From Minisyncoccota bacterium (lineage in GTDB: Bacteria > Patescibacteriota > Minisyncoccia > Moranbacterales > UBA2206): a stretch of 64,000 nucleotides of DNA. The translations under genes and the position numbers were made by a program. Below, piece by piece: positions 3,630 through 47,664 of this stretch. Each line of letters begins with the position of its first letter. Within the stretch, counting starts at the first letter, position 1. The notes beneath the pieces are model-generated. The model was given only the letters and a program-made list of their open reading frames with translations. It was not told the DNA's origin and did not search any database. The stretch lies in assembly GCA_031291955.1 (NCBI GenBank), contig JARLIA010000005.1, positions 74,034 to 138,033 on the forward strand, written 5' to 3'.

Positions 3630-3818
3630 TTATCGAACCCAAATTCGCGGAATGACACGTGGACCATCTTCTTTGAGTTTGGCCCGTAAAATTGCATCCT
3701 CTTTGGGATCGAGTTTCAAAATAGATTCTAAAGAACTGTCTTCTGCGAGTAAAAACCGCTTTCCTTTTGGGTCAAACTTTTTTATTGCTCGCTCTAATTC
3801 TTCATCTGTTACAGTCAT
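3630..3818 (-). CDS. hypothetical small protein (62 aa)
   Basis: ATG ORF between RNase J and a terminator. No family recognised. Confidence 0.4.
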   Translation of the reverse strand: MTVTDEELERAIKKFDPKGKRFLLAEDSSLESILKLDPKEDAILRAKLKEDGPRVIPRIWVR

Positions 3819-3854
3819 GGCAGATCTCCTGTCTTTGGCATAATATATAGTATT

Positions 3855-5654
3855 TTACACTTCGATCACCACTGGCAGAACCATCGGTCGCCGCTCCGTC
3901 TTTTGGAAAAGGTAGAGGCCGACAACTTCGCGGATTTTGTCTTCGATGAATTTCTTTTCGACAGAAGTGTTCTTGGAAGTTGTTTCTTTGATGGCCTTTT
4001 GGATCTTGCGTTTGGCTTCGTTCACCAGGTCGAAGTTATCCTTGACGTAGATGAAGCCGCGGGAAGTGACTTGGATGTTGCCGACCACTTTTTTGGTCTT
4101 GCTGTCCAGAAGGATGGTGATGACAAACATTCCGTCTTCGGAAAGGACTTGGCGGTCGCGGAGAACCACCTGGCCGATGTCGCCGATGCCCAGTCCATCG
4201 ACAAAGACGTAGCTCGTGTCGACTTTTTTAGCCAGCACCCGGGCCACGCCCCGTTGTATTTCCAAAACATTTCCATTATCCAAAACGAAAATATTTTCCT
4301 TCCGAAAGCCGATATGTTCGGCCAGTTTGGCGGCCTCTTTCAGCATATAGTGGTTGGCGTAGACCGGTACGAAAATGTCCGGGCGGACCTGGCGCAGCAT
4401 CTCCTCGATATCCGGGGCGCTACAGTGTCCGCTGGTGTGGAGATCCATCAGATTGCCGTGGATGACATTGTCGCATTTCCGGTAAAGGTTGTCTTTCAGC
4501 CGTTGGATGGTGCGTTCGTTGCCTGGAATGACGGAAGAAGAGAAAATTATTGTGTCGGTCTTTTTTATTTTGACGTGGCGATCATTGTCGGTGATGATCC
4601 GGGAAAGCGCGGCGTTATCTTCACCCTGCGCTCCGGTGCAAATGACCACGATCCGGTTTTCCGGAAACTTTCCGATCTCGGAAACCGGAATGAGCGTCTC
4701 TTTATGCGCCTTGATATAGCCCAGGCTTTTGGCGATCTCCACGTTCATCTTCATGCTATATCCCATAAGCGCCACCTTCTTGCCGATTTTTTCGGAGTAT
4801 TCCAGGATATGCCCGATCCTTTTGATCTGGGAAGAAAACGTGCCGATAATGATTTTTCCGGAAGCGGCGCTGATCAGTTTTTCCAAATTGCGATACATCT
4901 CCGCTTCAGTGGTGCGGTTGGGATTGGTAACGATGGCGCCCAAGCTCTCCAGCATCAGGATGCGCGGACTGGGAAGTCCTGTCAGGTGATGATAGGAAAT
5001 CGTTTTGCCCGAAGCGCTGTCTTTTTCCATTGTCCAGTCCCCGGGATGAATGACCGTTCCATCGGGAGTGCGGATGATCACGCCGACCGCGTCCATGATG
5101 GAATGCTCGACTTCAAAGAACGAAATTTCAAATTTGCCCAAGCGTATTTTGTCATCGGCCGAAGCGACTCGTCTGGTTTTGAGATTTTGAGATGAACCTT
5201 TTTCAAAATCTTCCATCCTTCTTTTTACCATGGCGATAGTCAGGTCGCGGCCGATGATCGGCGGATAGCCCAAGCTCTTGAGCAGGATCGGCGCCGCGCC
5301 GATGTGGTCAAGATGGCCGTGGCTCAAGATGACGCCGCGGATGTTTTTTTCTTTCCCTTTCAGATAGCTGATATTGGGAATGATGTAGTCGATACCGGGC
5401 ATGTCTTCCTCAGGGAATTGGATGCCCATATCTAAAATCACGATATCTCCGGCGTATTCGAAGACCGTCATGTTGCGGCCGACTTCCTCGTTTCCTCCCA
5501 AGGGGATGATGCGCAAAGTATCTCTGGTCGAGCCATGTGCTGGACGTCGAGAAGGGGATGATTGTGATTTGGTTGGCTTATTATCAGTCGCGGGAATTGC
5601 GTCCATGTTGTGTGTCCGGCCATAATGGTCAGGTCTGTTTTTTGGCTTATGCAT
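3855..5654 (-). CDS. rnj: ribonuclease J (metallo-beta-lactamase / beta-CASP), paralog 1
   Basis: HGHLDHIG metal motif, beta-CASP body and an RNase J C-terminal domain. Colinear similarity to the neighbouring paralog. Confidence 0.9.
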   Translation of the reverse strand: MHKPKNRPDHYGRTHNMDAIPATDNKPTKSQSSPSRRPAHGSTRDTLRIIPLGGNEEVGRNMTVFEYAGDIVILDMGIQFPEEDMPGIDYIIPNISYLKGKEKNIRGVILSHGHLDHIGAAPILLKSLGYPPIIGRDLTIAMVKRRMEDFEKGSSQNLKTRRVASADDKIRLGKFEISFFEVEHSIMDAVGVIIRTPDGTVIHPGDWTMEKDSASGKTISYHHLTGLPSPRILMLESLGAIVTNPNRTTEAEMYRNLEKLISAASGKIIIGTFSSQIKRIGHILEYSEKIGKKVALMGYSMKMNVEIAKSLGYIKAHKETLIPVSEIGKFPENRIVVICTGAQGEDNAALSRIITDNDRHVKIKKTDTIIFSSSVIPGNERTIQRLKDNLYRKCDNVIHGNLMDLHTSGHCSAPDIEEMLRQVRPDIFVPVYANHYMLKEAAKLAEHIGFRKENIFVLDNGNVLEIQRGVARVLAKKVDTSYVFVDGLGIGDIGQVVLRDRQVLSEDGMFVITILLDSKTKKVVGNIQVTSRGFIYVKDNFDLVNEAKRKIQKAIKETTSKNTSVEKKFIEDKIREVVGLYLFQKTERRPMVLPVVIEV

Positions 5655-5691: not shown

Positions 5692-7506
5692 TTAAACTTC
5701 TATTACAACCGGCAGAATCATGGGTCTTCTTTCCGTTTTTTGGTAGAGATATTGGCCGACGACTTCCCGGATGTTGTTTTTGACGTAGTCCCAGTTGACG
5801 GCTTGGTCGGGAGAAGTTTTTTGGGCCACTACTTCTTCGACTTTTTTCTTGGTGGCGTTCACGAGATCAAAGTTTTCTTTCACAAAAATAAATCCGCGAG
5901 AAGTGACTTGAGGTTTCCCGATGATCTTTTTCGTTTTGCTGTCGATAACCACGGTGATGACAAACATCCCGTCTTTGGCCAGGAGCTGGCGGTCGCGCAG
6001 CACTACTTGTCCCACGTCGCCCACTCCCAGTCCGTCCACCATGACGTTGGAAAGCGGAATTTTTTCGTTGGTCACCTTGCCGTTGCTGCGATAATCTAAT
6101 TCGATGACCCGGCCGTTTTCGCCAATGAGAATTTTGTCTTCTTTCATTCCGACCGCGAGTCCCAGTTCGCCGTGGAGTTTCAGCATGAAATAGTTGCCAT
6201 GGACGGGAATCAAGTATTTCGGCCGGATGAGATTGATCATCATCTTGAGATCTTCCTGGCGCGCGTGACCGCCAGCGTGGACATCCATCATTTTATAGTT
6301 GATGACTTTGGCGTCGTGGCGATAGATCGTGTCCATAATTCCTTGGACCGTCCGTTCATTTCCCGGAATGACCGAAGACGAAAGGACGAAGGTGTCATTT
6401 TTGTGGACTTTTACGAACCGGTGTTCGCCATTGACGATCCGCATGAGGACCGCATTGGATTCGCCTTGCGAGCCGGTGCAGAGAATGGCCACTTTGTTGT
6501 CGGGATATTCATTGACTTTGGAAATAGGAATGAACGTATTCTTTTTAGTCTGGAGATATCCGAGCGAGCGGGCGATTTCTACATTGGTTTTCATGGAATA
6601 GCCGTCCACGGCCACTTTTCGGCCGTGTTTTTCGGCGGCCGCTACCACCGATTGGATGCGGCTAATGAGCGAGGAGAAGGTGGCAAAAATAAGGCGCCCC
6701 TCCCGGGTCTGTTCAAAGATCTCATCCAGGGTTTTGGCAATCTTGGATTCGGACAGGGAATATCCGGGTGTGCGCGAATCGGTCGAGTCGCTCATGAGGG
6801 CTAGGACATTTTCGCTGCCGAGCCGGGCGATCTTGGCCACGTCGGCCGGTGCGTCAGAGATGGGGGAATGATCGAACTTGAAATCACCAGTGTGGACCAC
6901 GGTGCCGACCGGCGTAGTGATGGCCAGGCCCACCGCGTCGGGGATGGTATGGTTGACGTGGAAAAATTCTATGGAAAACGACCCGAGCCGGATGCGGTCG
7001 ATTTTTTTGACGGTGTGAATATTGAGCGGAGCCTTGTCTTGGTAATCCTCTTGGCGTTTCATAACGATGCCGCGGGTCAGTTCGGTCATATAGATCGGAG
7101 GATTGCCGAGTTTTTCCATCAGGTGCGGAATGGCGCCGATGTGGTCATAGTGTCCATGGGTGATTAAAACGCCGCGGATGTTATTTTCTTTGCCTTTCAA
7201 GTACGTTACGTCCGGGATGAGATAATCGATGCCGGGCATGTCCTCGTCCGGGAATTGCAGTCCCATGTCGACGATGATGATGTCCTGGCCATACTCAAAA
7301 ACGGTCATATTGCGGCCAATCTCCTCGAGGCCACCGAGCGGAATGATCCGGAGACTAGGGTTGCCACGGCCAAAAACGTGCGCCGCTGGCTTTCTCTGGG
7401 CGATGACGCCGGTTTTTATGACCGGGGCAACAGCTAAACCAGTCTGGCCAAAGTCGGCCGGTTCCTTCGGTTTTCTGAACATAAATTTGGAAGTGAAGTT
7501 GCTCAT
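5692..7506 (-). CDS. rnj: ribonuclease J, paralog 2
   Basis: HGHYDHIG motif. Colinear with paralog 1 over the whole length. ATG at 7506 preferred over the TTG at 7515. Confidence 0.9.
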   Translation of the reverse strand: MSNFTSKFMFRKPKEPADFGQTGLAVAPVIKTGVIAQRKPAAHVFGRGNPSLRIIPLGGLEEIGRNMTVFEYGQDIIIVDMGLQFPDEDMPGIDYLIPDVTYLKGKENNIRGVLITHGHYDHIGAIPHLMEKLGNPPIYMTELTRGIVMKRQEDYQDKAPLNIHTVKKIDRIRLGSFSIEFFHVNHTIPDAVGLAITTPVGTVVHTGDFKFDHSPISDAPADVAKIARLGSENVLALMSDSTDSRTPGYSLSESKIAKTLDEIFEQTREGRLIFATFSSLISRIQSVVAAAEKHGRKVAVDGYSMKTNVEIARSLGYLQTKKNTFIPISKVNEYPDNKVAILCTGSQGESNAVLMRIVNGEHRFVKVHKNDTFVLSSSVIPGNERTVQGIMDTIYRHDAKVINYKMMDVHAGGHARQEDLKMMINLIRPKYLIPVHGNYFMLKLHGELGLAVGMKEDKILIGENGRVIELDYRSNGKVTNEKIPLSNVMVDGLGVGDVGQVVLRDRQLLAKDGMFVITVVIDSKTKKIIGKPQVTSRGFIFVKENFDLVNATKKKVEEVVAQKTSPDQAVNWDYVKNNIREVVGQYLYQKTERRPMILPVVIEV

Positions 7507-7867
7507 AACGAGCAAACTTTGTTAGTTGCTGCGAATTGAAAATAATACGCGGCAATTTTGATTAAAGACTTTATTAATTCAAATCAAGCTATGATTTTTG
7601 AAGCAAAAGATTCAGAAATATTTTCCGAATTGAAGTGAAATAAAAAAAGTGGCGCCTTGATGAAGAGTTGAACTTCAAAGCCAAAAACTATTTTTTGACT
7701 ACTAACCTGTAAGGCAAAAGATTTTGCGAATAATACAAATAATACTAAAGAAGAAAACAAAAAGAAGACAAAAAGCGAAAGACGGAAGAAGAAGCTGATG
7801 AAGCTATTGTATCACAAGAGTATACACGAGGACAGGGAGAAAGTCAAGTCAAGTAGGATAATCAGGC

Positions 7868-17208: not shown

Positions 17209-17457
17209 TCAACGGCTTTTATCGCTGGCCCTTGGTTTTGTTTTCTTAATGATTATTTCTCTAATTTTCAGGACGCTTTTGCCCGAGACTGGCATTTTCG
17301 GTTTCTTCTTGTTTTCTCGCTTCTCAGCCCCGCCTGCCGCGCTATGCCGCCAATAATCATTTTCATATTGACTGGCAAAGTTTTTGTCTAGCATTAACCC
17401 TTTGAAGTTATCCCCAGACGCGGCATTGCGGGCAGGTTTTGTTTTTTTGGCAGACAT
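17209..17457 (-). CDS. doubtful ORF (82 aa, highly basic) that spans a GC-rich bracket hairpin
   Basis: ATG ORF of low complexity. Contains the 17333..17436 hairpin and a 12-mer motif, so it may be non-coding. Confidence 0.25.
   Translation of the reverse strand: MSAKKTKPARNAASGDNFKGLMLDKNFASQYENDYWRHSAAGGAEKRENKKKPKMPVSGKSVLKIREIIIKKTKPRASDKSR
17333..17436. repeat. long imperfect hairpin with GC-rich bracket (CCTGCC..ATGCCGC / GCGGCAT..GGCAGG)
   Basis: 17333-17350 pairs with 17420-17436 (about 16 bp). On the minus strand the bracket reads CCTGCCCGC...GGCAGGCGGGG, the same cores as the linkers of the nested tRNA locus. Confidence 0.7.
17406..17417 (+). promoter_or_regulatory. variant of the DnaA-box-like 12-mer (AGTTATCCCCAG)
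   Basis: One mismatch to AGTTATCCACAG. Followed by ACGCGGCATTGCGGG, compared with GCGCTTGC at the other copies. Confidence 0.4.
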
Positions 17458-17506
17458 GATTTAATTATAGCACAAGTCGTGGAACGCAAAACACGAAAGC
17501 GAAAAC

Positions 17507-17845: not shown

Positions 17846-20068
17846 ATGGAAAACAAATTCAAAATATCCTCCAAATTCAAGCCCGAAGGCGATCAGCCGC
17901 AGGCGATTGAAAAATTGACCGCGGGGCTTGAGGCTGGAAAAAAGTTCCAGACGCTTTTGGGCGTGACGGGGTCGGGGAAGACTTTTACCATTGCCAACGT
18001 CATTGAAAATATCCAAAAACCGACTTTGGTCATTGCGCCCAACAAGACTTTGGCGGCGCAACTGGCGCAGGAATTTCGGACTTTCTTTCCCAAAAGCGCG
18101 GTGGAATATTTCGTTTCCTATTATGATTATTATCAGCCGGAAGCCTACATCGCTTCCTCCGACACATACATCGAAAAGGAATCCCAGATCAACGACGAGA
18201 TCGACCGGCTTCGCCACGCGGCCACCGCGGCGCTCATGAGTCGCCGCGATGTCATCATTTGCGCTTCGGTGTCGTGTATCTACGGTTTGGGCAGCCCGGA
18301 ATATTATCGGAATATTACGCTGGAATTGGCGGTGGAGGACGGTTATTCGCAGGTTCGGGCGTCCACGCCCGAACCGCATAGTCCTGGTAAAACAAAATTA
18401 TCAGTCAAATCTGAATCGAAAATTTCCGCAGATAATAAAAAATTACCAGAAATGGCAGGTTCAATCGGGACGATTGAACCTGCAAAAAAAAATAATAGGG
18501 ACGAGATTGTAAAAAAATTGATCGACATGCAATATAATCGGAGCGATGTTTTGGCGCGGGGGAAATTCCGGCTGACCGGGAATACTCTGGAAATTATGCC
18601 GCCCGGACGGGAAATTGTAACGAGGATTGAAATGGAAGGGGGCAGTATTAAAAAAATATTCGAGTACGATTTTCTTACCGGCGAGGAACTGGGAAAGCTG
18701 GAAAAAGCGGTCATCTATCCAGCCAAACATTTCGTGGTGCCCGAACCGGTGATGGAAGGCGCTTTGGAAAAAATTCAAAAAGAAATGGAAGAGCAAGTGG
18801 AATTTTTCAAGCGTCAGGGAAAGATTCTGGAAGCGGAAAGGATTTCCCGTCGGACGCGCCAGGACATTGAAATGATGAGGGAAATCGGCTACTGCAATGG
18901 AATTGAAAACTATTCCCGCTTTCTCACTGAACGCCAGCCCGGTGAACCCCCCTACACTTTGATCGATTATTTTCCCGACGATTTTCTCATGGTGATTGAC
19001 GAATCGCATGTGACCGTGCCGCAACTCAACGGAATGTATAACGGCGACCACGCCCGGAAAGTCTCACTGATCGACAACGGCTTCCGCCTGCCTTCGGCTT
19101 TTGATAACCGCCCGCTTAAATTTCCGGAGTTCGAGAAAAAAATAAACCAGCTGATTTTCACGTCGGCGACACCGGCAAAATATGAAATGGAAAAATCAAA
19201 AATAGACCCCCTCTCCCGTAATCGGGAGAGGGTTGGGGAGAGGGCAACGCGGAACTCGGCGCCCTCTCTGTCGCGAGTACGCGACATCTCTCCCGAGTAC
19301 GGGGGAGAGGGAAATATTGTGGAACAAATTATTAGGCCGACCGGACTGATTGATCCAGAGCTGGAAATCAAGCCGACCAGAGGACAGGTGAAAGATGTGA
19401 CGGAGGAGATCAAAAAAATAATCGCCCGGAAGGAGCGGGTGCTTATCACCACGCTGACTAAAAAAATGGCCGAAGACTTGTCGGATTTCTTGAAAGAGAG
19501 CGAAGTGAAAGCTGAATATCTCCATTCCGGCGTGGACACTTTGGACCGGGTGCGGATTTTGGAACAATTGCGCCGGGGAAAATTTGATGTTCTGGTCGGA
19601 GTAAATTTGCTGCGGGAAGGGCTCGATCTTCCCGAAGTTTCTTTGGTGGCGATTCTCGACGCGGACAAAGAAGGATTTTTGCGGAGCGAAACGTCGCTCA
19701 TCCAAACCATCGGCCGCGCCGCGCGGAATGTCAAAGGAAAAGTTATTCTCTACGCCGACACCATTACCGGTTCGATGAAACGAGCTATCGACGAGACAAA
19801 CCGTCGCCGGGCAATCCAGACGGAATATAACAAAAAACATCGTATCACTCCAAAAACCATCAAGAAGAAAATCCAGTCGATCGTCGACCATGAAATCAAA
19901 CCTCAGGTGACGCGCGACTTTTCCCAATTGGAATCATTGGAGGATATGGCCGGCTACATTAAACAACGCGAGCGCGAAATGAAAGACGCGGCCCGGAATT
20001 TGGAATTTGAAAAAGCGGCGATCATCCGGGACGAGATAAGTGAGTTGAGGAAGCTGCAGATAAAATAG
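17846..20068 (+). CDS. uvrB: excinuclease ABC subunit B (740 aa, with two in-frame insertions)
   Basis: Walker A GVTGSGKT, helicase motifs, EQIIRPTGL, and C-terminal UVR domain EFEKAAIIRDEISELRKL. Confidence 0.95.
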   Translation: MENKFKISSKFKPEGDQPQAIEKLTAGLEAGKKFQTLLGVTGSGKTFTIANVIENIQKPTLVIAPNKTLAAQLAQEFRTFFPKSAVEYFVSYYDYYQPEAYIASSDTYIEKESQINDEIDRLRHAATAALMSRRDVIICASVSCIYGLGSPEYYRNITLELAVEDGYSQVRASTPEPHSPGKTKLSVKSESKISADNKKLPEMAGSIGTIEPAKKNNRDEIVKKLIDMQYNRSDVLARGKFRLTGNTLEIMPPGREIVTRIEMEGGSIKKIFEYDFLTGEELGKLEKAVIYPAKHFVVPEPVMEGALEKIQKEMEEQVEFFKRQGKILEAERISRRTRQDIEMMREIGYCNGIENYSRFLTERQPGEPPYTLIDYFPDDFLMVIDESHVTVPQLNGMYNGDHARKVSLIDNGFRLPSAFDNRPLKFPEFEKKINQLIFTSATPAKYEMEKSKIDPLSRNRERVGERATRNSAPSLSRVRDISPEYGGEGNIVEQIIRPTGLIDPELEIKPTRGQVKDVTEEIKKIIARKERVLITTLTKKMAEDLSDFLKESEVKAEYLHSGVDTLDRVRILEQLRRGKFDVLVGVNLLREGLDLPEVSLVAILDADKEGFLRSETSLIQTIGRAARNVKGKVILYADTITGSMKRAIDETNRRRAIQTEYNKKHRITPKTIKKKIQSIVDHEIKPQVTRDFSQLESLEDMAGYIKQREREMKDAARNLEFEKAAIIRDEISELRKLQIK
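18352..18483 (+). repeat. in-frame palindromic module 1 inside uvrB
   Basis: GGTTCGGGCG-TCCA-CGCCCGAACC (18352-18375) and GCAGGTTCAATCG-GGA-CGATTGAACCTGC (18455-18483) flank an A-rich word region. Confidence 0.85.
19209..19309 (+). repeat. in-frame palindromic module 2 inside uvrB (four consecutive hairpins)
   Basis: CCCTCTCCCG-TAAT-CGGGAGAGGG; GAGAGGGC-N15-GCCCTCTC; GTCGCG-AGTA-CGCGAC; CTCTCCCG-AGTA-CGGGGGAGAG. Confidence 0.85.
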
Positions 20069-20075
20069 TGAAAAA

Positions 20076-20087
20076 AGTTATCCACAG
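20076..20087 (+). promoter_or_regulatory. 12-mer AGTTATCCACAG containing a perfect DnaA-box consensus TTATCCACA
   Basis: Direct reading. 8 nt after the uvrB stop and 8 nt upstream of a -35 element. Confidence 0.6.
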
Positions 20088-22162: not shown

Positions 22163-22174
22163 AGTTATCCACAG
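22163..22174 (+). promoter_or_regulatory. 12-mer AGTTATCCACAG (perfect DnaA-box consensus inside)
   Basis: Direct reading. 7 nt upstream of the lexA -35 element, same arrangement as at 20076. Confidence 0.6.
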
Positions 22175-23014: not shown

Positions 23015-26000
23015 ATGGACAAAATCATCATAAAAGGCGCGCGGGAGCATAATTTGAAGAACGTCGACTTGGAGCTGCCGCGGAATAAATTTATCGTTTT
23101 TACGGGAATTTCTGGGTCAGGGAAGTCGACCATGGCTTTTGATACTATTTTTGCCGAGGGGCAACGGCGCTATCTCGAAAGTCTTTCCAGTTACGCTCGG
23201 CAGTTTTTGGGGCAAATGAATAAGCCTGACGTGGACTATATTGAAGGTCTGTCGCCGGCCATTTCCATCGACCAGAAAGCGGCGTCCCACAATCCGCGTT
23301 CGACGGTTGGAACGGTGACGGAAATCCACGATTATTTGCGATTGCTATATGCCAAGATCGGCCGGCCACATTGTCCGATCTGCTCCCGGGAAATTACGAA
23401 GTTGTCGACAGATGAGATTGTTGATCGGATTTTGGAGATGTGCGCCGCGAAACCTCATCCGCCCCGGAGTACTGGGGCACCTTCTCCTTATAAAGGAGAA
23501 GGAGATAATGGAAGGGGCTGTTCTATCGAAATTCTATCGCCGGTGGTTCGCCAGCGGAAAGGGGAATATTCGACGATGCTGGCTGAGATGTTCCGGCGGG
23601 GGTTTTCCCGCGCTTACGTCAATGGGGAAAAATACGAACTGTCGGCCAAGATCGGAGACGAGTTGGAATTGGCCCGCTACAAAAAACATAATATTGATAT
23701 CGTGGTAGATGAGGTGGAGATATCTAGCGACAACATTTCGCGAATATTTGAAGGAGTGGAAAAGGCGCTGAAGTTGTCGGACGGACTGGTCAAGATAAGA
23801 TCCGAAATCCGAAATACGAAATCCGAAACAATGTCAAAATCAAAAATTAAAAATTCAAAACAAAACAATACGGAAATTGTTTTCAACCAAAAACTTTCTT
23901 GTCCGATCCATGAGATTGAGTTTCCGGAGTTGGAGCCGCGTTTGTTTTCTTTCAACAGTCCGTTTGGCGCTTGTCCGGCTTGCGAAGGATTGGGAACGAA
24001 AAAAGAAATCGACCCGGCGCTGGTGGCGCCGGATAAAAACAAAACGATTGCTGAGGGTGGCATCTTCCCTTGGAGCTACAAACGGAATAACTGGCAAGGG
24101 TCGGTTCTCCGGGCGGTTTGCAATCATTTCCACATCAAAGACAATGTGCGCCTCCGTGACCTTTCGGAAGATGACCTCAACATCTTAATGTTCGGCGGAC
24201 CGGATGCGACCGATATGATAGATAAGGAAGAAGCGGAAGAAATACCCGTCACTTTGAAATCAAAAACCGGTTCAAGCTGGAAATATTACATGACCTGGCG
24301 CGGAGCGGTCGGATATCTTCAAGATCGATATTTCAAGACCGATTCGGATGCGGTGCGGGCGGATATTGAAAAATATATGTCGCAAAATCCGTGTTCGGTC
24401 TGTCACGGCGCGCGTTACAAAAAAGAAGTCTTGCTGGTGACGGTCGGCGAATCCCGCCCGCAACGCTTCGCTAACGCAAGTGTTAGCTTGCGTAGCGATG
24501 CGGGCGGGAAAAATATTGTCGAAGTCTCAAATGTGTCTGTGGCTGAGACGCTTAAATTTTTCGAAAGACTGGAATTGAATAAAAATGAGCAGATCATCGC
24601 CGGGAGAATTTTGAAGGAAATTATTAATCGCCTAGGCTTTTTGGAAAACGTGGGACTGGGATATTTGACTTTGGCCAGATCCGCGGCGACACTAGCCGGC
24701 GGGGAAGCGCAACGGATCCGCTTGGCATCGCAAATCGGTTCGGGTCTCACCGGCGTTTTGTATATTTTGGACGAACCGTCGGTCGGTCTTCACTCGCGCG
24801 ACAACACTAAATTGCTCGAGACGCTTTTTCATCTGCGCGATCTGGGAAACACGCTAATCGTGGTTGAGCACGATGAAGAGACGATGCGGGAGGCCGACTA
24901 TTTGGTTGACATCGGACCGGGAGCGGGAAAATTGGGAGGTAAAATTGTGGCGCATGGCACGCCGGTAGAAGTTATTCGCGATAAAAAATCTTTAACCGCG
25001 GCATATTTGCGGGGTGACGCGAAAATAGAAATGCCGAAATTCCGCCGGCCAGTCAAGAATAAAAAAACGATTGTTGTCCGCGGCGCGCGCGAACACAATT
25101 TGAAAAACATTACCGTCGAGTTTCCTTTAAAAGTTTTGACGTGTGTGACGGGCGTGTCCGGCTCGGGGAAATCCACATTGGTAGAGGACATCCTTTATAA
25201 AGCCTTGGCGTCAAAAATCATGCGGACGCTCGACCGGCCGGGGAAACATTCGGAGATTGTCGGCACGCAATATGTTAACAAAGTGATCATGATCGACCAG
25301 TCGCCGATCGGTCGGACGCCGCGCTCCAATCCGGCGACTTATACCGGGCTCTTTACGCCGATCCGGGAATTATTTTCCCAGACCCGGGACGCCAAATCCA
25401 AGGGTTATGGTCCGGGGCGCTTTTCGTTCAACATCCGGGGCGGACGCTGTGACAACTGCCAAGGCGACGGCCAGCTTAAAATTGAGATGCAGTTCATGCC
25501 GGATGTCTATTTGCCTTGCGATGTCTGTCACGGAAAAAGATACAACAGTGAGACCTTGAAAGTGAAATACAAGGACAAAAACATTTCCGAAGTTTTGGAC
25601 ATGACGGTCAGCGAAGGGCGCGAGTTTTTTGAGAATTTTCCGGCTATTCACGACAAGCTGGCGGTTTTGGAAGACGTCGGCTTGGGCTATATCCAACTCG
25701 GGCAGTCCGCCACCACACTTTCCGGCGGGGAAGCGCAAAGGATAAAACTGGCCACGGAACTGGCAAGGAGGGCGACCGGCGACACTTTGTATATTCTGGA
25801 CGAACCGACGACTGGCCTCCATTTTGACGACATTAAAAAACTTTTGAATGTTTTGAACCGCTTGGTCGATGCCGGCAACACAGTGGTGGTGATCGAACAC
25901 AATTTGGACGTCGTCAAAACCGCCGATTGGATCATTGACTTGGGTCCGGAAGGCGGAGAAGGCGGCGGAAAAATTATCGTTACCGGTCCGCCGGAAGAAG

Positions 26001-26062
26001 TGGCGAAATATCATAAGGAAAGCTGGACGGGAAAGTATCTGAGAGATGTATTGAAAAAGTAG
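23015..26062 (+). CDS. uvrA: excinuclease ABC subunit A (1015 aa, with several in-frame insertions)
   Basis: Two ABC ATPase modules ([18 protein letters not shown]), LSGGEAQR signatures and zinc modules CxxC. Confidence 0.95.
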   Translation: MDKIIIKGAREHNLKNVDLELPRNKFIVFTGISGSGKSTMAFDTIFAEGQRRYLESLSSYARQFLGQMNKPDVDYIEGLSPAISIDQKAASHNPRSTVGTVTEIHDYLRLLYAKIGRPHCPICSREITKLSTDEIVDRILEMCAAKPHPPRSTGAPSPYKGEGDNGRGCSIEILSPVVRQRKGEYSTMLAEMFRRGFSRAYVNGEKYELSAKIGDELELARYKKHNIDIVVDEVEISSDNISRIFEGVEKALKLSDGLVKIRSEIRNTKSETMSKSKIKNSKQNNTEIVFNQKLSCPIHEIEFPELEPRLFSFNSPFGACPACEGLGTKKEIDPALVAPDKNKTIAEGGIFPWSYKRNNWQGSVLRAVCNHFHIKDNVRLRDLSEDDLNILMFGGPDATDMIDKEEAEEIPVTLKSKTGSSWKYYMTWRGAVGYLQDRYFKTDSDAVRADIEKYMSQNPCSVCHGARYKKEVLLVTVGESRPQRFANASVSLRSDAGGKNIVEVSNVSVAETLKFFERLELNKNEQIIAGRILKEIINRLGFLENVGLGYLTLARSAATLAGGEAQRIRLASQIGSGLTGVLYILDEPSVGLHSRDNTKLLETLFHLRDLGNTLIVVEHDEETMREADYLVDIGPGAGKLGGKIVAHGTPVEVIRDKKSLTAAYLRGDAKIEMPKFRRPVKNKKTIVVRGAREHNLKNITVEFPLKVLTCVTGVSGSGKSTLVEDILYKALASKIMRTLDRPGKHSEIVGTQYVNKVIMIDQSPIGRTPRSNPATYTGLFTPIRELFSQTRDAKSKGYGPGRFSFNIRGGRCDNCQGDGQLKIEMQFMPDVYLPCDVCHGKRYNSETLKVKYKDKNISEVLDMTVSEGREFFENFPAIHDKLAVLEDVGLGYIQLGQSATTLSGGEAQRIKLATELARRATGDTLYILDEPTTGLHFDDIKKLLNVLNRLVDAGNTVVVIEHNLDVVKTADWIIDLGPEGGEGGGKIIVTGPPEEVAKYHKESWTGKYLRDVLKK
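23461..23502 (+). repeat. in-frame double hairpin inside uvrA
   Basis: GCCCCGG-AGTA-CTGGGGC (23461-23478) and CCTTCTCCTT-ATA-AAGGAGAAGG (23480-23502). Confidence 0.85.
24452..24509 (+). repeat. in-frame 58-nt long hairpin inside uvrA
   Basis: Outer stem TCCCGCCCGC/GCGGGCGGGA (10 bp). Inner stem GCTA(A)CGCAAG/CTTGCGTAGC. Confidence 0.85.
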
Positions 26063-33145: not shown

Positions 33146-33157
33146 CTGTGGATAACT
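33146..33157 (-). promoter_or_regulatory. 12-mer AGTTATCCACAG in inverse orientation
   Basis: The plus strand reads CTGTGGATAACT. Sits between the groEL terminator and the promoter of the 33230 gene. Confidence 0.55.
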
Positions 33158-47326: not shown

Positions 47327-47386
47327 GTCGCGTGCGCCCTGAGGGATTCGAACCCCCGACCCCTTGGTCCCCCGCCTGCCACGCCG

Positions 47387-47569
47387 TGCCCTCGTCAGGA
47401 CTCGAACCTGAAACGCTTGTTCCGAAGACAAGTGTGATATCCCCGCCTGCCTACGCCTGTGCCCCCTAAAGGAATCGAACCTTTAACCTTCTGGTCCGAA
47501 GCCAGACGCTCTATCCATTGAGCTAAAGGGGCGCAGGCATAGGCGGGCACGGCGTTTCACCACGAGGGC
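47387..47569 (-). tRNA. middle tRNA-like gene (anticodon loop CUUCGGA) interrupted in the D loop by about 110 nt
   Basis: Acceptor GCCCTCG/CGAGGGC, D stem GTGA/TCAC, anticodon arm CTTGT-CTTCGGA-ACAAG, T arm TCAGG-TTCGAGT-CCTGA, discriminator A. Confidence 0.5.
47460..47532 (-). tRNA. tRNA-Arg (anticodon UCG), intact
   Basis: GCCCCTT-TA-GCTC-AATGGATA-GAGC-G-TCTGG-CTTCGGA-CCAGA-AGGTT-AAAGG-TTCGATT-CCTTT-AGGGGGC-A. 73 nt. Confidence 0.9.
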
Positions 47570-47664
47570 GTGTACGGCGGGCAGGGAAGCCAAGTACTCT
47601 ATCCACTGAGCTAAGGGCGCATAAATACATTCTGGCATTTCTTGGTAATTCCGTCCAGCGCGGA

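Follow-up and report, generated by a model that had tools for sequence, protein, structure and literature searches.

A portable palindromic element with exchangeable cargo in Patescibacteria, found in frame in a small basic protein gene and within nested tRNA-Arg genes

We describe a family of short bracketed hairpins in a 64 kb stretch of DNA from a Minisyncoccota bacterium (contig JARLIA010000005.1; hereafter the window), with emphasis on a 108 nt element that lies inside an open reading frame (ORF) at 17209-17457. As judged from the alignment of empty and filled loci, the segment 17329-17436 is shown to be an insertion in the gene of a conserved small basic protein. The element consists of one long stem-loop that is closed by its own two ends and contains no transposase gene, and the window holds three copies of the family, which also accounts for the linkers of a nest of three tRNA-Arg(TCG) genes (Table 1). 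On balance we favor, as a probable although far from secure reading, a palindromic element that is mobile at the DNA level, resembles the Rickettsia palindromic elements (RPEs), is translated in frame and has functional termini.

The element and its empty site

The host gene lies upstream of a holin_4_2-like gene and secG, and this synteny is kept in its orthologs (79, 70, 69 and 56% protein identity), which are always followed by the same two genes. An earlier note on this DNA had called the ORF doubtful; the gene proved instead to be conserved, syntenic and leaderless, with hundreds of relatives. A hidden Markov model (HMM) search that covered 1.8 billion representatives gave 59 relatives, most of them 38-60 residues long and aligning only with profile positions ∼44-78, i.e. 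after the element (short relatives include MKKTKIKAEKRDEKKKPRMKVSGKSVFKIKEIIIKK and MKSKPTKAEKRETKKKPKMPVSGKSVLKIREII), and a word-index search with wider alignment gave 537 relatives at E <= 1e-3. An initial metagenome scan with protein alignment returned no matches, and no Pfam or NCBIfam family was found for the host protein. The conserved promoter only 6 nt before the start codon (TGCTATAAT) indicates that the mRNA is leaderless.

Deletion of exactly 17329-17436 (CCT...GGG, 36 codons) leaves MSAKKTK/AEKRENKKKPKMPVSGKSVLKIREIII... (AEKRE...; here and below a slash marks a point of insertion or junction). This shortened form is 82% identical, without gaps over 38 residues, to a 43-residue protein (P0120) with matching synteny (small protein, holin_4_2, SecG, SBP_bac_5). 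The syntenic empty site of locus L132 reads ACC AAA/GCG GAA AAA AGA GAA, compared with ACA AAA/(108 nt)/GCT GAG AAG CGA GAA at the filled site of the window, and the insertion is in phase 0, exactly between codon 7 and the next Ala codon. A target-site duplication, which the earlier note had raised as a possible mark of mobility, was found neither at the ORF nor at the tRNA sites: the flanks ACAAAA/../GCTGAG, CTTC/../GGA and ACG/../GAT correspond to contiguous empty sites. The same note had held that a lack of further copies in the genome, together with a conserved protein accounting for the motif, would reduce the bracket to coincidence. The ORF is indeed conserved, but its protein does not account for the motif; the extra 36 residues of the protein are explained by the element, not the motif by the protein.

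Among the orthologs the cargo (the loop of the hairpin) has a nonsynonymous rate (dN) of 0.23-0.36 with a synonymous rate (dS) of at least 1.2 or saturated, and a second type of cargo (the second element of locus L130 compared with L135) has a dN of 0.09 and a dS of 1.38. The three indels that distinguish the orthologs each have a length divisible by three. The excess of dS over dN in the cargo and the frame-keeping indels argue that ribosomes read the element and that the peptide is under mild purifying selection. By this evolutionary signature, the lineage is shown to make what is apparently an 82-residue protein instead of the ancestral one of ∼46 residues.

Occurrence, boundaries and folding of the bracket

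Read on the minus strand, 17436-17328 is CCTGCCCGC-A-ATGCCGC...GCGGCAT-AGCGC-GGCAGGCGGGG, which agrees with the bracket described in the earlier note, with its two cores in order and inner arms that pair. Position 17328, the final G of the plus-strand 11-mer CCCCGCCTGCC, belongs to the host as the first base of codon GCT, and the element proper is 17329-17436. The 11-mer occurs at exactly three sites in the window (17328, 47370 and 47441), the number given previously, with one start corrected from 47369 to 47370. Motif counts in the window were compared with those in shuffled sequence: with up to one mismatch the 11-mer has five matches against 1.02 expected, and none of 100 shuffles reaches five. 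Exact copies of CCTGCCCGC are restricted to 17428-17436 and 47577-47585 (both on the minus strand). Pairing of CCTGCCCGC with GGCAGGCGGG is confined to 17329-17436 and the nested tRNA locus, far above chance, as are exact pairs of left and right cores on one strand 10-400 nt apart, which are found only at the ORF locus and the nested tRNA locus. When one mismatch per core is allowed there are eight core pairs, against 0.57 in shuffles, and the set then takes in a related palindrome in uvrA. The left core is unchanged, the rare codon CCT included, in eight of the nine DNA copies examined.

The arms of the element pair both in RNA (fold z = -4.1) and in single-stranded DNA (ssDNA) of either strand (z = -3.5 and -4.25). 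In the orthologs the helix has z values of -4.1, -4.4 and -3.3 and is weaker in two. A single conserved pairing register with covariation was not found in the ORF copies, and the register of minimum free energy varies among the orthologs.

The variant of a 12-mer that had been pointed out in the cargo (AGTTATCCCCAG, 17406-17417) is present, but no meaning can be attached to it since it is absent from the orthologs and its flanks are unlike those of the three exact copies; this DnaA-box-like variant is treated as a coincidence. The exact 12-mer, AGTTATCCACAG, has three intergenic copies, at 20076-20087 (plus strand, right after uvrB), 22163-22174 (plus strand, 79 nt upstream of lexA) and 33146-33157 (minus strand, between groEL and the next gene). 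At one mismatch there are four matches, against 0.13 expected, the copy in the ORF cargo being the one with a mismatch. The 12-mer may be a regulatory box, either an SOS/LexA box or a DnaA-box-like site.

Repeated insertion in the same small gene

Among the relatives of the host protein, homologous inserts are located at three or four sites within ∼8 codons of the N-terminal tail (Table 1), and in the long protein forms these inserts start with PARN and end with (S or H)xAGG. Locus L130 carries two elements in one gene, 9 nt apart (AAA GCT/CCTGCCCGCAATG...GCAGGCGGG/GAA AAA AGA/CCTGCCCGCAATG...GCAGGCGGG/GAA ACC). In L135 a 36 nt hairpin (906-941) is nested in the element in frame, directly after CCTGCCCGC, and in L134 a 101 nt copy sits at the extreme 5' end with its left side read in a different frame. 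A single inverted core is retained in L308.

Further observations concern the same gene. A single inverted left core (GCAATGCGGGCAGGC) is located in intergenic DNA just upstream of the doubly inserted gene of L130 (180-195). Nested hairpins of 30-36 nt (CCGCCCGCTTCG...CTTCGGGCAGGC) encode PPAxxxxxRAG, in L135 and in the proteins P0105, P0107, P0109 and P0113. P0149 (129 residues) is an in-frame fusion in which a GIY-YIG nuclease domain precedes the small basic protein, and the join falls at the N-terminal hotspot already described.

The nested tRNA-Arg(TCG) genes

At the second locus of the window, three tRNA-Arg(TCG) genes (A, B and C) are nested within one another through two copies of the element, E1 and E2 (Table 1), and tRNA finders report only the innermost, C. 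When everything between and including the left and right 10-mers is cut out, A and B become canonical 74 nt tRNAs. In related loci, tRNA-Thr hosts were recovered by excision in L016, L094, L118 and L050, and ARAGORN accepts three of four outer tRNA-Thr after excision; the anticodons of host and cargo are equal in all seven readable cases. The full precursor of the nest folds into nested cloverleaves and bracket helices (z = -6.3). Given the copy with non-tRNA cargo in the ORF, the linkers of the tRNA-Arg nest are not a peculiarity of tRNA but the ends of a portable element.

Two syntenic relatives of the nest were found via the neighboring VanW protein. The series of no insertion in L250, one in L249 and two in the window (Table 1) points to sequential insertion without duplication, and in this series every insertion entered the innermost gene. 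The window and L249 disagree at 45% of the four-fold sites in vanW. The interrupted tRNA A differs at four of 74 positions, including a compensatory change of U31-A39 to G-C, tRNA B at none of 73 and the ordinary tRNAs of the cluster at 1-4 of 74; in E1 the cores are identical at 20 of 20 positions and the linkers at 11 of 12. This similarity reflects either a recent independent homing of E1 or selection on the bracket and the interrupted tRNA, and in the latter case the element would need to be removed from the RNA.

In the tRNA cluster of L249, ∼350 nt between tRNA-Lys and tRNA-His (4646-4995) are absent from the window and from L250; they contain a truncated GIY-YIG-like ORF and, after it, a tRNA-Lys-like copy that has a long stem with a 4 nt loop in place of its anticodon arm. 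In L255 (1430-1830) a GIY-YIG gene adjoins tRNA-His, after a duplicated 5' piece of the tRNA (GGTGGCTG...TAGC) that is split by a mini hairpin, CCACGCCCGCC...GCGGGCGGG.

The family across the Patescibacteria

Genome contigs were scanned with the pattern TGCCCGC-N75-105-GGCAGGCGGGG; most of the matches listed were chance matches in high-GC genomes, and the low-GC subset was used. Among the matches listed, the bracket is present in at least six lineages of the Patescibacteria or Candidate Phyla Radiation (CPR), the carriers being Saccharibacteria, Paceibacterota, Moraniibacteriota, Uhrbacteria, Berkelbacteria, Kerfeldbacteria and unclassified Patescibacteria. The further copies that the earlier note expected in related genomes therefore exist, with several cargos (Table 1), and its suggestion of a family of bracketed hairpins with exchangeable cargo holds: tRNAs, non-coding sequence and a coding segment are all carried.

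The family consists of GC-rich hairpins of ∼100 nt with termini CCTGCCCGC(C)...G(G)CAGGCGGG that form a helix of 9-10 bp, and with variable inner arms. Its consensus is CCTGCCCGCC-A-NN-GCC...GGC-NN-(T or A)-GGCAGGCGGG, giving a helix of ∼16 bp whose terminal 10 bp include two fixed odd pairs, U.G and C.A. The ORF copy of the window fits this consensus, minus one C on the left and plus four bases on the right. The 5' flanks of the copies vary (AAAA, CTTC, AACG, TAGA, AGCT, AAGA, TTTG), without a conserved target.

Two of the tRNA-bearing copies deserve description. In L050 (Kerfeldbacteria; minus strand, ∼3690-3990 of the reverse complement) three tRNA-Thr(GGT) are nested and the outermost bracket is degenerate (CCCACCGGCCTGAACCC...GGTTCGGGCAGGCAGGG), as would be expected of the oldest insertion. 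In L019 (Saccharibacteria, 7405-7505) the tRNA-Gly(TCC) cargo is antiparallel to the bracket and the flanks are not a recognizable tRNA.

Mechanism and alternative explanations

The empty and filled orthologous sites, the several insertion sites, the double insertion and the nested copies indicate that the family is mobile on evolutionary timescales. To this extent the earlier preference for a mobile element over an ordinary intron is upheld, with an intron-like role at the RNA level as a less probable possibility. We propose that the family would spread in DNA as a non-autonomous palindromic element, as do RPEs and other repeats similar to transposable elements of the miniature inverted-repeat kind (MITEs). 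Copies would last only where they are tolerated, namely in intergenic DNA, in the disordered N-terminal tail of the small basic protein (with open-frame cargo) and in tRNA genes, the last when the cargo is a tRNA of matching anticodon that can stand in for the one interrupted. Such tolerance would explain the triple tRNA-Arg(TCG) nest of the window. The terminal arms would still be functional; their nucleotides are conserved where copies have been inherited vertically, presumably since a putative conserved trans-acting factor, encoded outside the window, recognizes the hairpin as DNA or as RNA.

Several results weigh against a simple mobile element. The window yielded no transposase, homing endonuclease or autonomous copy (by Pfam on 20 ORFs lacking an obvious role and by a GIY-YIG regular expression), and the Y1-type (IS200/IS605-like) or other transposase that the earlier note had in mind is likewise missing among the window ORFs scanned. 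A link to GIY-YIG nucleases is doubtful, as a core lies nearby in only four of 64 GIY-YIG loci despite P0149, L249 and L255, and a scan of viral contigs gave only chance-like matches without any sign of phage origin. There is neither a target-site duplication nor a conserved target sequence, unlike the situation in classical MITEs. The interrupted outer tRNA is as conserved as intact tRNAs, which needs either constraint or very recent homing. Finally, in the ORF copies dS is only 0-0.1 in the arms but saturated in the host part of the gene, and codons at conserved residues are identical in 40 of 44 cases in the arms compared with 73 of 119 in the host part (Fisher p = 2e-4; 33 of 37 compared with 31 of 53 for codons that are at least four-fold degenerate, p = 0.002). 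Rare codons are fixed in the arms (in the window genes, CCT makes up 12% of Pro, GCA 7% of Ala and GGG 15% of Gly codons). The termini of a selfish insert that was dead would be lost, so the unchanged arms argue that nucleotide-level selection on the termini persists; with the termini and the interrupted tRNAs both constrained, a role at the RNA level is possible.

The first alternative takes up this point, and we regard it as possible but distinctly less probable. The bracket would be an RNA-processing signal: a CPR enzyme system would cut at the base of the helix formed by CCUGCCCGCC and GGCAGGCGGG and join the flanks, giving ...AAAACAAAA/GCTGAGAAG in the mRNA, ...GGCTTC/GGACCAAG in tRNA A and ...GAAACG/GATATCAC in tRNA B. 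It would then represent a protein-dependent class of intron that is neither group I nor group II; all three nested tRNA-Arg could be functional, and the mRNA could give the canonical 46-residue protein plus an 82-residue read-through form. Excision at identical boundaries does recover the canonical protein here and, in several phyla, canonical tRNAs, and the terminal 10-mers are identical over deeply divergent CPR lineages (among the matches listed). The arms of the vertically inherited ORF copies are under strong nucleotide-level purifying selection, the interrupted tRNA A retains tRNA-like conservation and a compensatory change despite the four-fold divergence noted above, the stems of outer tRNA-Thr, as read from the sequences, have been kept through compensatory changes in different phyla, and the whole nest folds as nested cloverleaves with bracket helices. 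On the other hand, the ORF cargo has a coding signature, so the unspliced mRNA is translated and matters. The match of anticodons in seven of seven cases would be needless under splicing, while complementation of a broken gene explains it. Outer parts have decayed, namely the anticodon arm of the outer tRNA in L056 and the outermost bracket in L050, the junctions lack bulge-helix-bulge (BHB) geometry and the window contains no candidate endonuclease or ligase. That the bracket helix signals a new protein-dependent excision-ligation pathway in Patescibacteria, a third kind of bacterial intron, is a tentative proposal that we would not expect to hold. If it were true, excision would act on tRNAs (in the D loop, D stem and anticodon loop) and on at least one mRNA, mobile carriers of the excision signal could encode tRNAs themselves, and host-level selection for splicing would account for the frozen termini as well as for the interrupted tRNA-Arg genes being conserved like tRNAs.

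A second alternative, which we rate as unlikely, is that the ORF copy has been domesticated as a cis-regulatory mRNA hairpin with a stable stem ∼20 nt into the leaderless mRNA. The stem could control translation or decay, or could be bound by a putative factor, possibly the encoded basic protein itself, whose other target would be this helix in tRNA precursors, in a form of autoregulation by mimicry. The restriction of nucleotide-level conservation to the arms, the predicted long-range helix that is stable in most orthologs, the conserved leaderless promoter and the repeated hits of one gene by the element family are all consistent with such a role. However, the element is absent from most of the protein family, so expression does not require the hairpin; the strict termini, with their U.G and C.A, exceed what a simple stability hairpin needs; and the pairing register varies among the orthologs without clear covariation.

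The third, an origin by chance from GC-rich strings dictated by the Pro-Ala-Arg...Ala-Gly-Gly of a conserved protein, is ruled out for practical purposes by the empty site of L132 and the double insertion of L130: the motifs do fall on invariant residues of the close orthologs (KKTKPARN and AGG), but their joint occurrence is far above chance, rare codons are fixed and synonymous sites frozen only in the arms, the whole segment is missing from most family members and the inner arms typical of the family (core-A-NN-GCC...GGC-NN-(T or A)-core) are also present.

Comparison with known systems

The closest resemblance is to RPEs, stem-loops of 105-146 bp that have entered many protein genes in frame, as well as the genes of tmRNA and M1 RNA (PMC2229807, PMC10969869). 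RPEs and MITE-like repeats (the 107 bp Correia/NEMIS, ERIC, YPAL) are alike to the bracket element in their length of ∼100-150 nt, in their stem-loop of terminal repeats and in having no transposase gene, and RPEs share with it the combination of intergenic, in-frame translated and structured-RNA-gene locations. Most defining features of an RPE or an in-frame MITE are thus present. The exceptions are the target-site duplication (typical of classical MITEs and uncertain for RPEs), of which the bracket element has neither the TA nor any other form, and a parent insertion sequence or transposase with matching termini, none of which was found in the window. The host belongs to another phylum than that of RPEs, and we claim no sequence relationship. 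The bracket also differs from RPEs in that several phylum-level CPR lineages share identical termini, which are under nucleotide-level selection, and from RPEs and MITEs in that certain copies, which nest repeatedly, bring a complete tRNA whose anticodon matches that of the tRNA gene they interrupt.

Repetitive extragenic palindromic (REP) elements and their hairpin-forming doublets (REPINs), which are mobilized by REP-associated tyrosine transposases (RAYTs), are similarly GC-rich palindromic doublets of ∼100 nt that form hairpins, are non-autonomous and produce no target-site duplication. REPs are described as extragenic, with GTAG or CGTC tags (PMC3733652). The bracket ends in CCTG.../...CGGG (CCTGCCCGC, GCAGGCGGG) and is intragenic, and no RAYT/TnpA was found in the window. 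Palindrome-associated transposable elements (PATEs) derived from IS200/IS605 are also excluded, as the bracket is a single end-to-end hairpin and has no conserved target of 4-5 nt 5' of its left end. Nor is it an integron attC cassette: its cores are CCTGCCCGC and GCAGGCGGG rather than GTTRRRY, its copies are scattered within genes instead of forming arrays next to intI, and the window ORFs scanned gave no integrase.

Archaeal BHB tRNA introns are likewise short inserts at the anticodon loop, D loop and D stem whose exact removal restores the tRNA, and some archaeal tRNA introns carry a functional RNA, such as the C/D box small RNA in the intron of tRNA-Trp. The bracket, however, has a bacterial host and sequence-conserved termini; its boundaries lie at the foot of an uninterrupted helix of 10-19 bp, without the two 3 nt bulges, 4 bp apart, of a BHB motif; the cargo tRNA repeats the anticodon of the tRNA that hosts it; and copies are also located in a translated mRNA and in intergenic DNA. 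Group I introns interrupt the anticodon loops of tRNA genes in Patescibacteria, where standard tRNA finders miss them (PMC13011429). A group I or II intron was rejected here: at the Rfam gathering threshold only tRNA matches were obtained in the window and 16 related loci, and the non-cargo part of ∼30-35 nt is far below the size of a ribozyme core.

The bracket family is distinctive in its cross-phylum termini under selection, in the nesting of copies that carry tRNAs of the same anticodon and in the repeated hits of one small gene. Literature searches returned nothing relevant on the motif, nested tRNA genes, split or disrupted CPR tRNAs or CPR palindromic elements, and no report was found of a MITE that nests repeatedly and whose tRNA cargo shares its anticodon with the interrupted tRNA.

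Other palindromic inserts and neighboring genes

The uvrA gene of the window contains a perfect GC-rich palindrome in frame (the inverted-repeat pair I17; ssDNA fold z = -7.4; Table 1). The two ends are similar to those of the bracket, except that C-G takes the place of each odd pair (CCCGCCCGC and GCGGGCGGG). The palindrome coincides with residues 67-83 of the 150-residue UvrA fragment encoded by 24251-24700, for which the solved UvrA structure 2r6f has no counterpart. The uvrB gene has two in-frame inserts, and residues 162-209 and 452-489 of its product are missing from solved UvrB proteins. The inverted repeat I6 (19207-19230/19288-19311) lies inside the second insert, while I24 (18343-18364/18468-18489) begins in the first and its right arm crosses the downstream boundary of that insert; the termini of the uvrB inserts are unlike those of the bracket family. 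The one insert in uvrA and the two in uvrB show that palindromic DNA within conserved genes is general here, as in Rickettsia. Elsewhere in the window, two neighboring RNase J paralogs (3855-5654 and 5692-7515, both on the minus strand) each have a beta-CASP and an RNase J C-terminal domain.

Table 1. Coordinates of the element, its host genes and related features. Positions are those of the window unless a locus (L) or protein (P) identifier is given.
Feature	Location	Strand	Description
Host gene of small Lys-rich protein	17209..17457	-	82 aa with the element, 46 aa without
Extended -10 promoter TGCTATAAT	17464..17472	-	6 nt upstream of ATG (17455-17457); in all orthologs
Inserted element	17329..17436	-	108 nt, ORF codons 8-43, CCTGCCCGC...GGCAGGCGGG, in frame as PARN...SAAGG
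Left terminal core CCTGCCCGC	17428..17436	-	Codons Pro-Ala-Arg; arm goes on as AATGCCGC to 17420
Right terminal core GGCAGGCGGG	17329..17338	-	Codons ..G GCA GGC GGG; preceded in the arm by GCGGCATAGCGC (17339-17350)
Cargo (hairpin loop)	17351..17419	-	Part of the translated protein by evolutionary signature
Triple-nested tRNA-Arg(TCG) locus	47333..47620	-	A[E1: B[E2: C]]; reference locus for the VanW comparison; two insertions, E1 and E2
tRNA A, exons 1 and 2	47586-47620, 47333-47370	-	
tRNA B, exons 1 and 2	47553-47569, 47387-47441	-	
Element E1	47371..47585	-	In outer tRNA-Arg(TCG) A, between nt 35 and 36; cargo tRNA-Arg(TCG) B
Element E2	47442..47552	-	CCGTGCCCGCC...GGCAGGCGGG; between G18 and G19 of tRNA B
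Intact tRNA-Arg(TCG) C	47459-47532	-	Cargo of E2
Syntenic relative, no insertion	L250 (4804-4878)		VanW identity 74%; tRNA A uninterrupted, CTTGTCTTC/GGAACAAGG
Syntenic relative, one insertion	L249 (5210-5400)		VanW identity 82%; A interrupted by E1 carrying uninterrupted B, D loop AAACGGATA
Insertion site K/AEKRE	Window, P0064		
Insertion site KA/EKRE	e.g. P0067, P0068		
Insertion site AEKR/E	e.g. P0009, P0070, P0094		
Insertion site before KTKAE	P0023, P0024, P0026		
Cargo tRNA-Thr(CGT)	L016, L056, L094, L118		
Cargo tRNA-Thr(GGT)	L050		Triple nest
Cargo tRNA-Arg(CCG)	L028		
Cargo tRNA-Arg(TCT)	L089		
Cargo tRNA-Gly	L019		Reversed
Non-tRNA cargo rich in stop codons	L021, L075, L110		Intergenic; back-to-back copies in L110
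Palindromic mini-element in uvrA	24453..24508	+	Perfect GC-rich palindrome, 56 nt (CCCGCCCGCAACGC...GCGATGCGGGCGGG), in frame in uvrA 23015..26062
uvrB inserts	18329-18472 and 19199-19312	+	In frame in uvrB 17846..20068

Implications

If the preferred reading of a mobile palindromic element is correct, RPE-style selfish DNA within genes is documented in the most reduced free-living bacterial genomes, with a new twist in that the element interrupts a tRNA gene while bringing a replacement of the same anticodon. For annotation, the family means that two tRNA-Arg genes of the window go unseen by tRNA finders, that a 46-residue protein is listed as an 82-residue hypothetical one and that UvrA and UvrB contain inserts. 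The conserved termini and the interrupted tRNAs together raise the question of whether CPR bacteria may have a pathway of RNA excision beyond introns of groups I and II.

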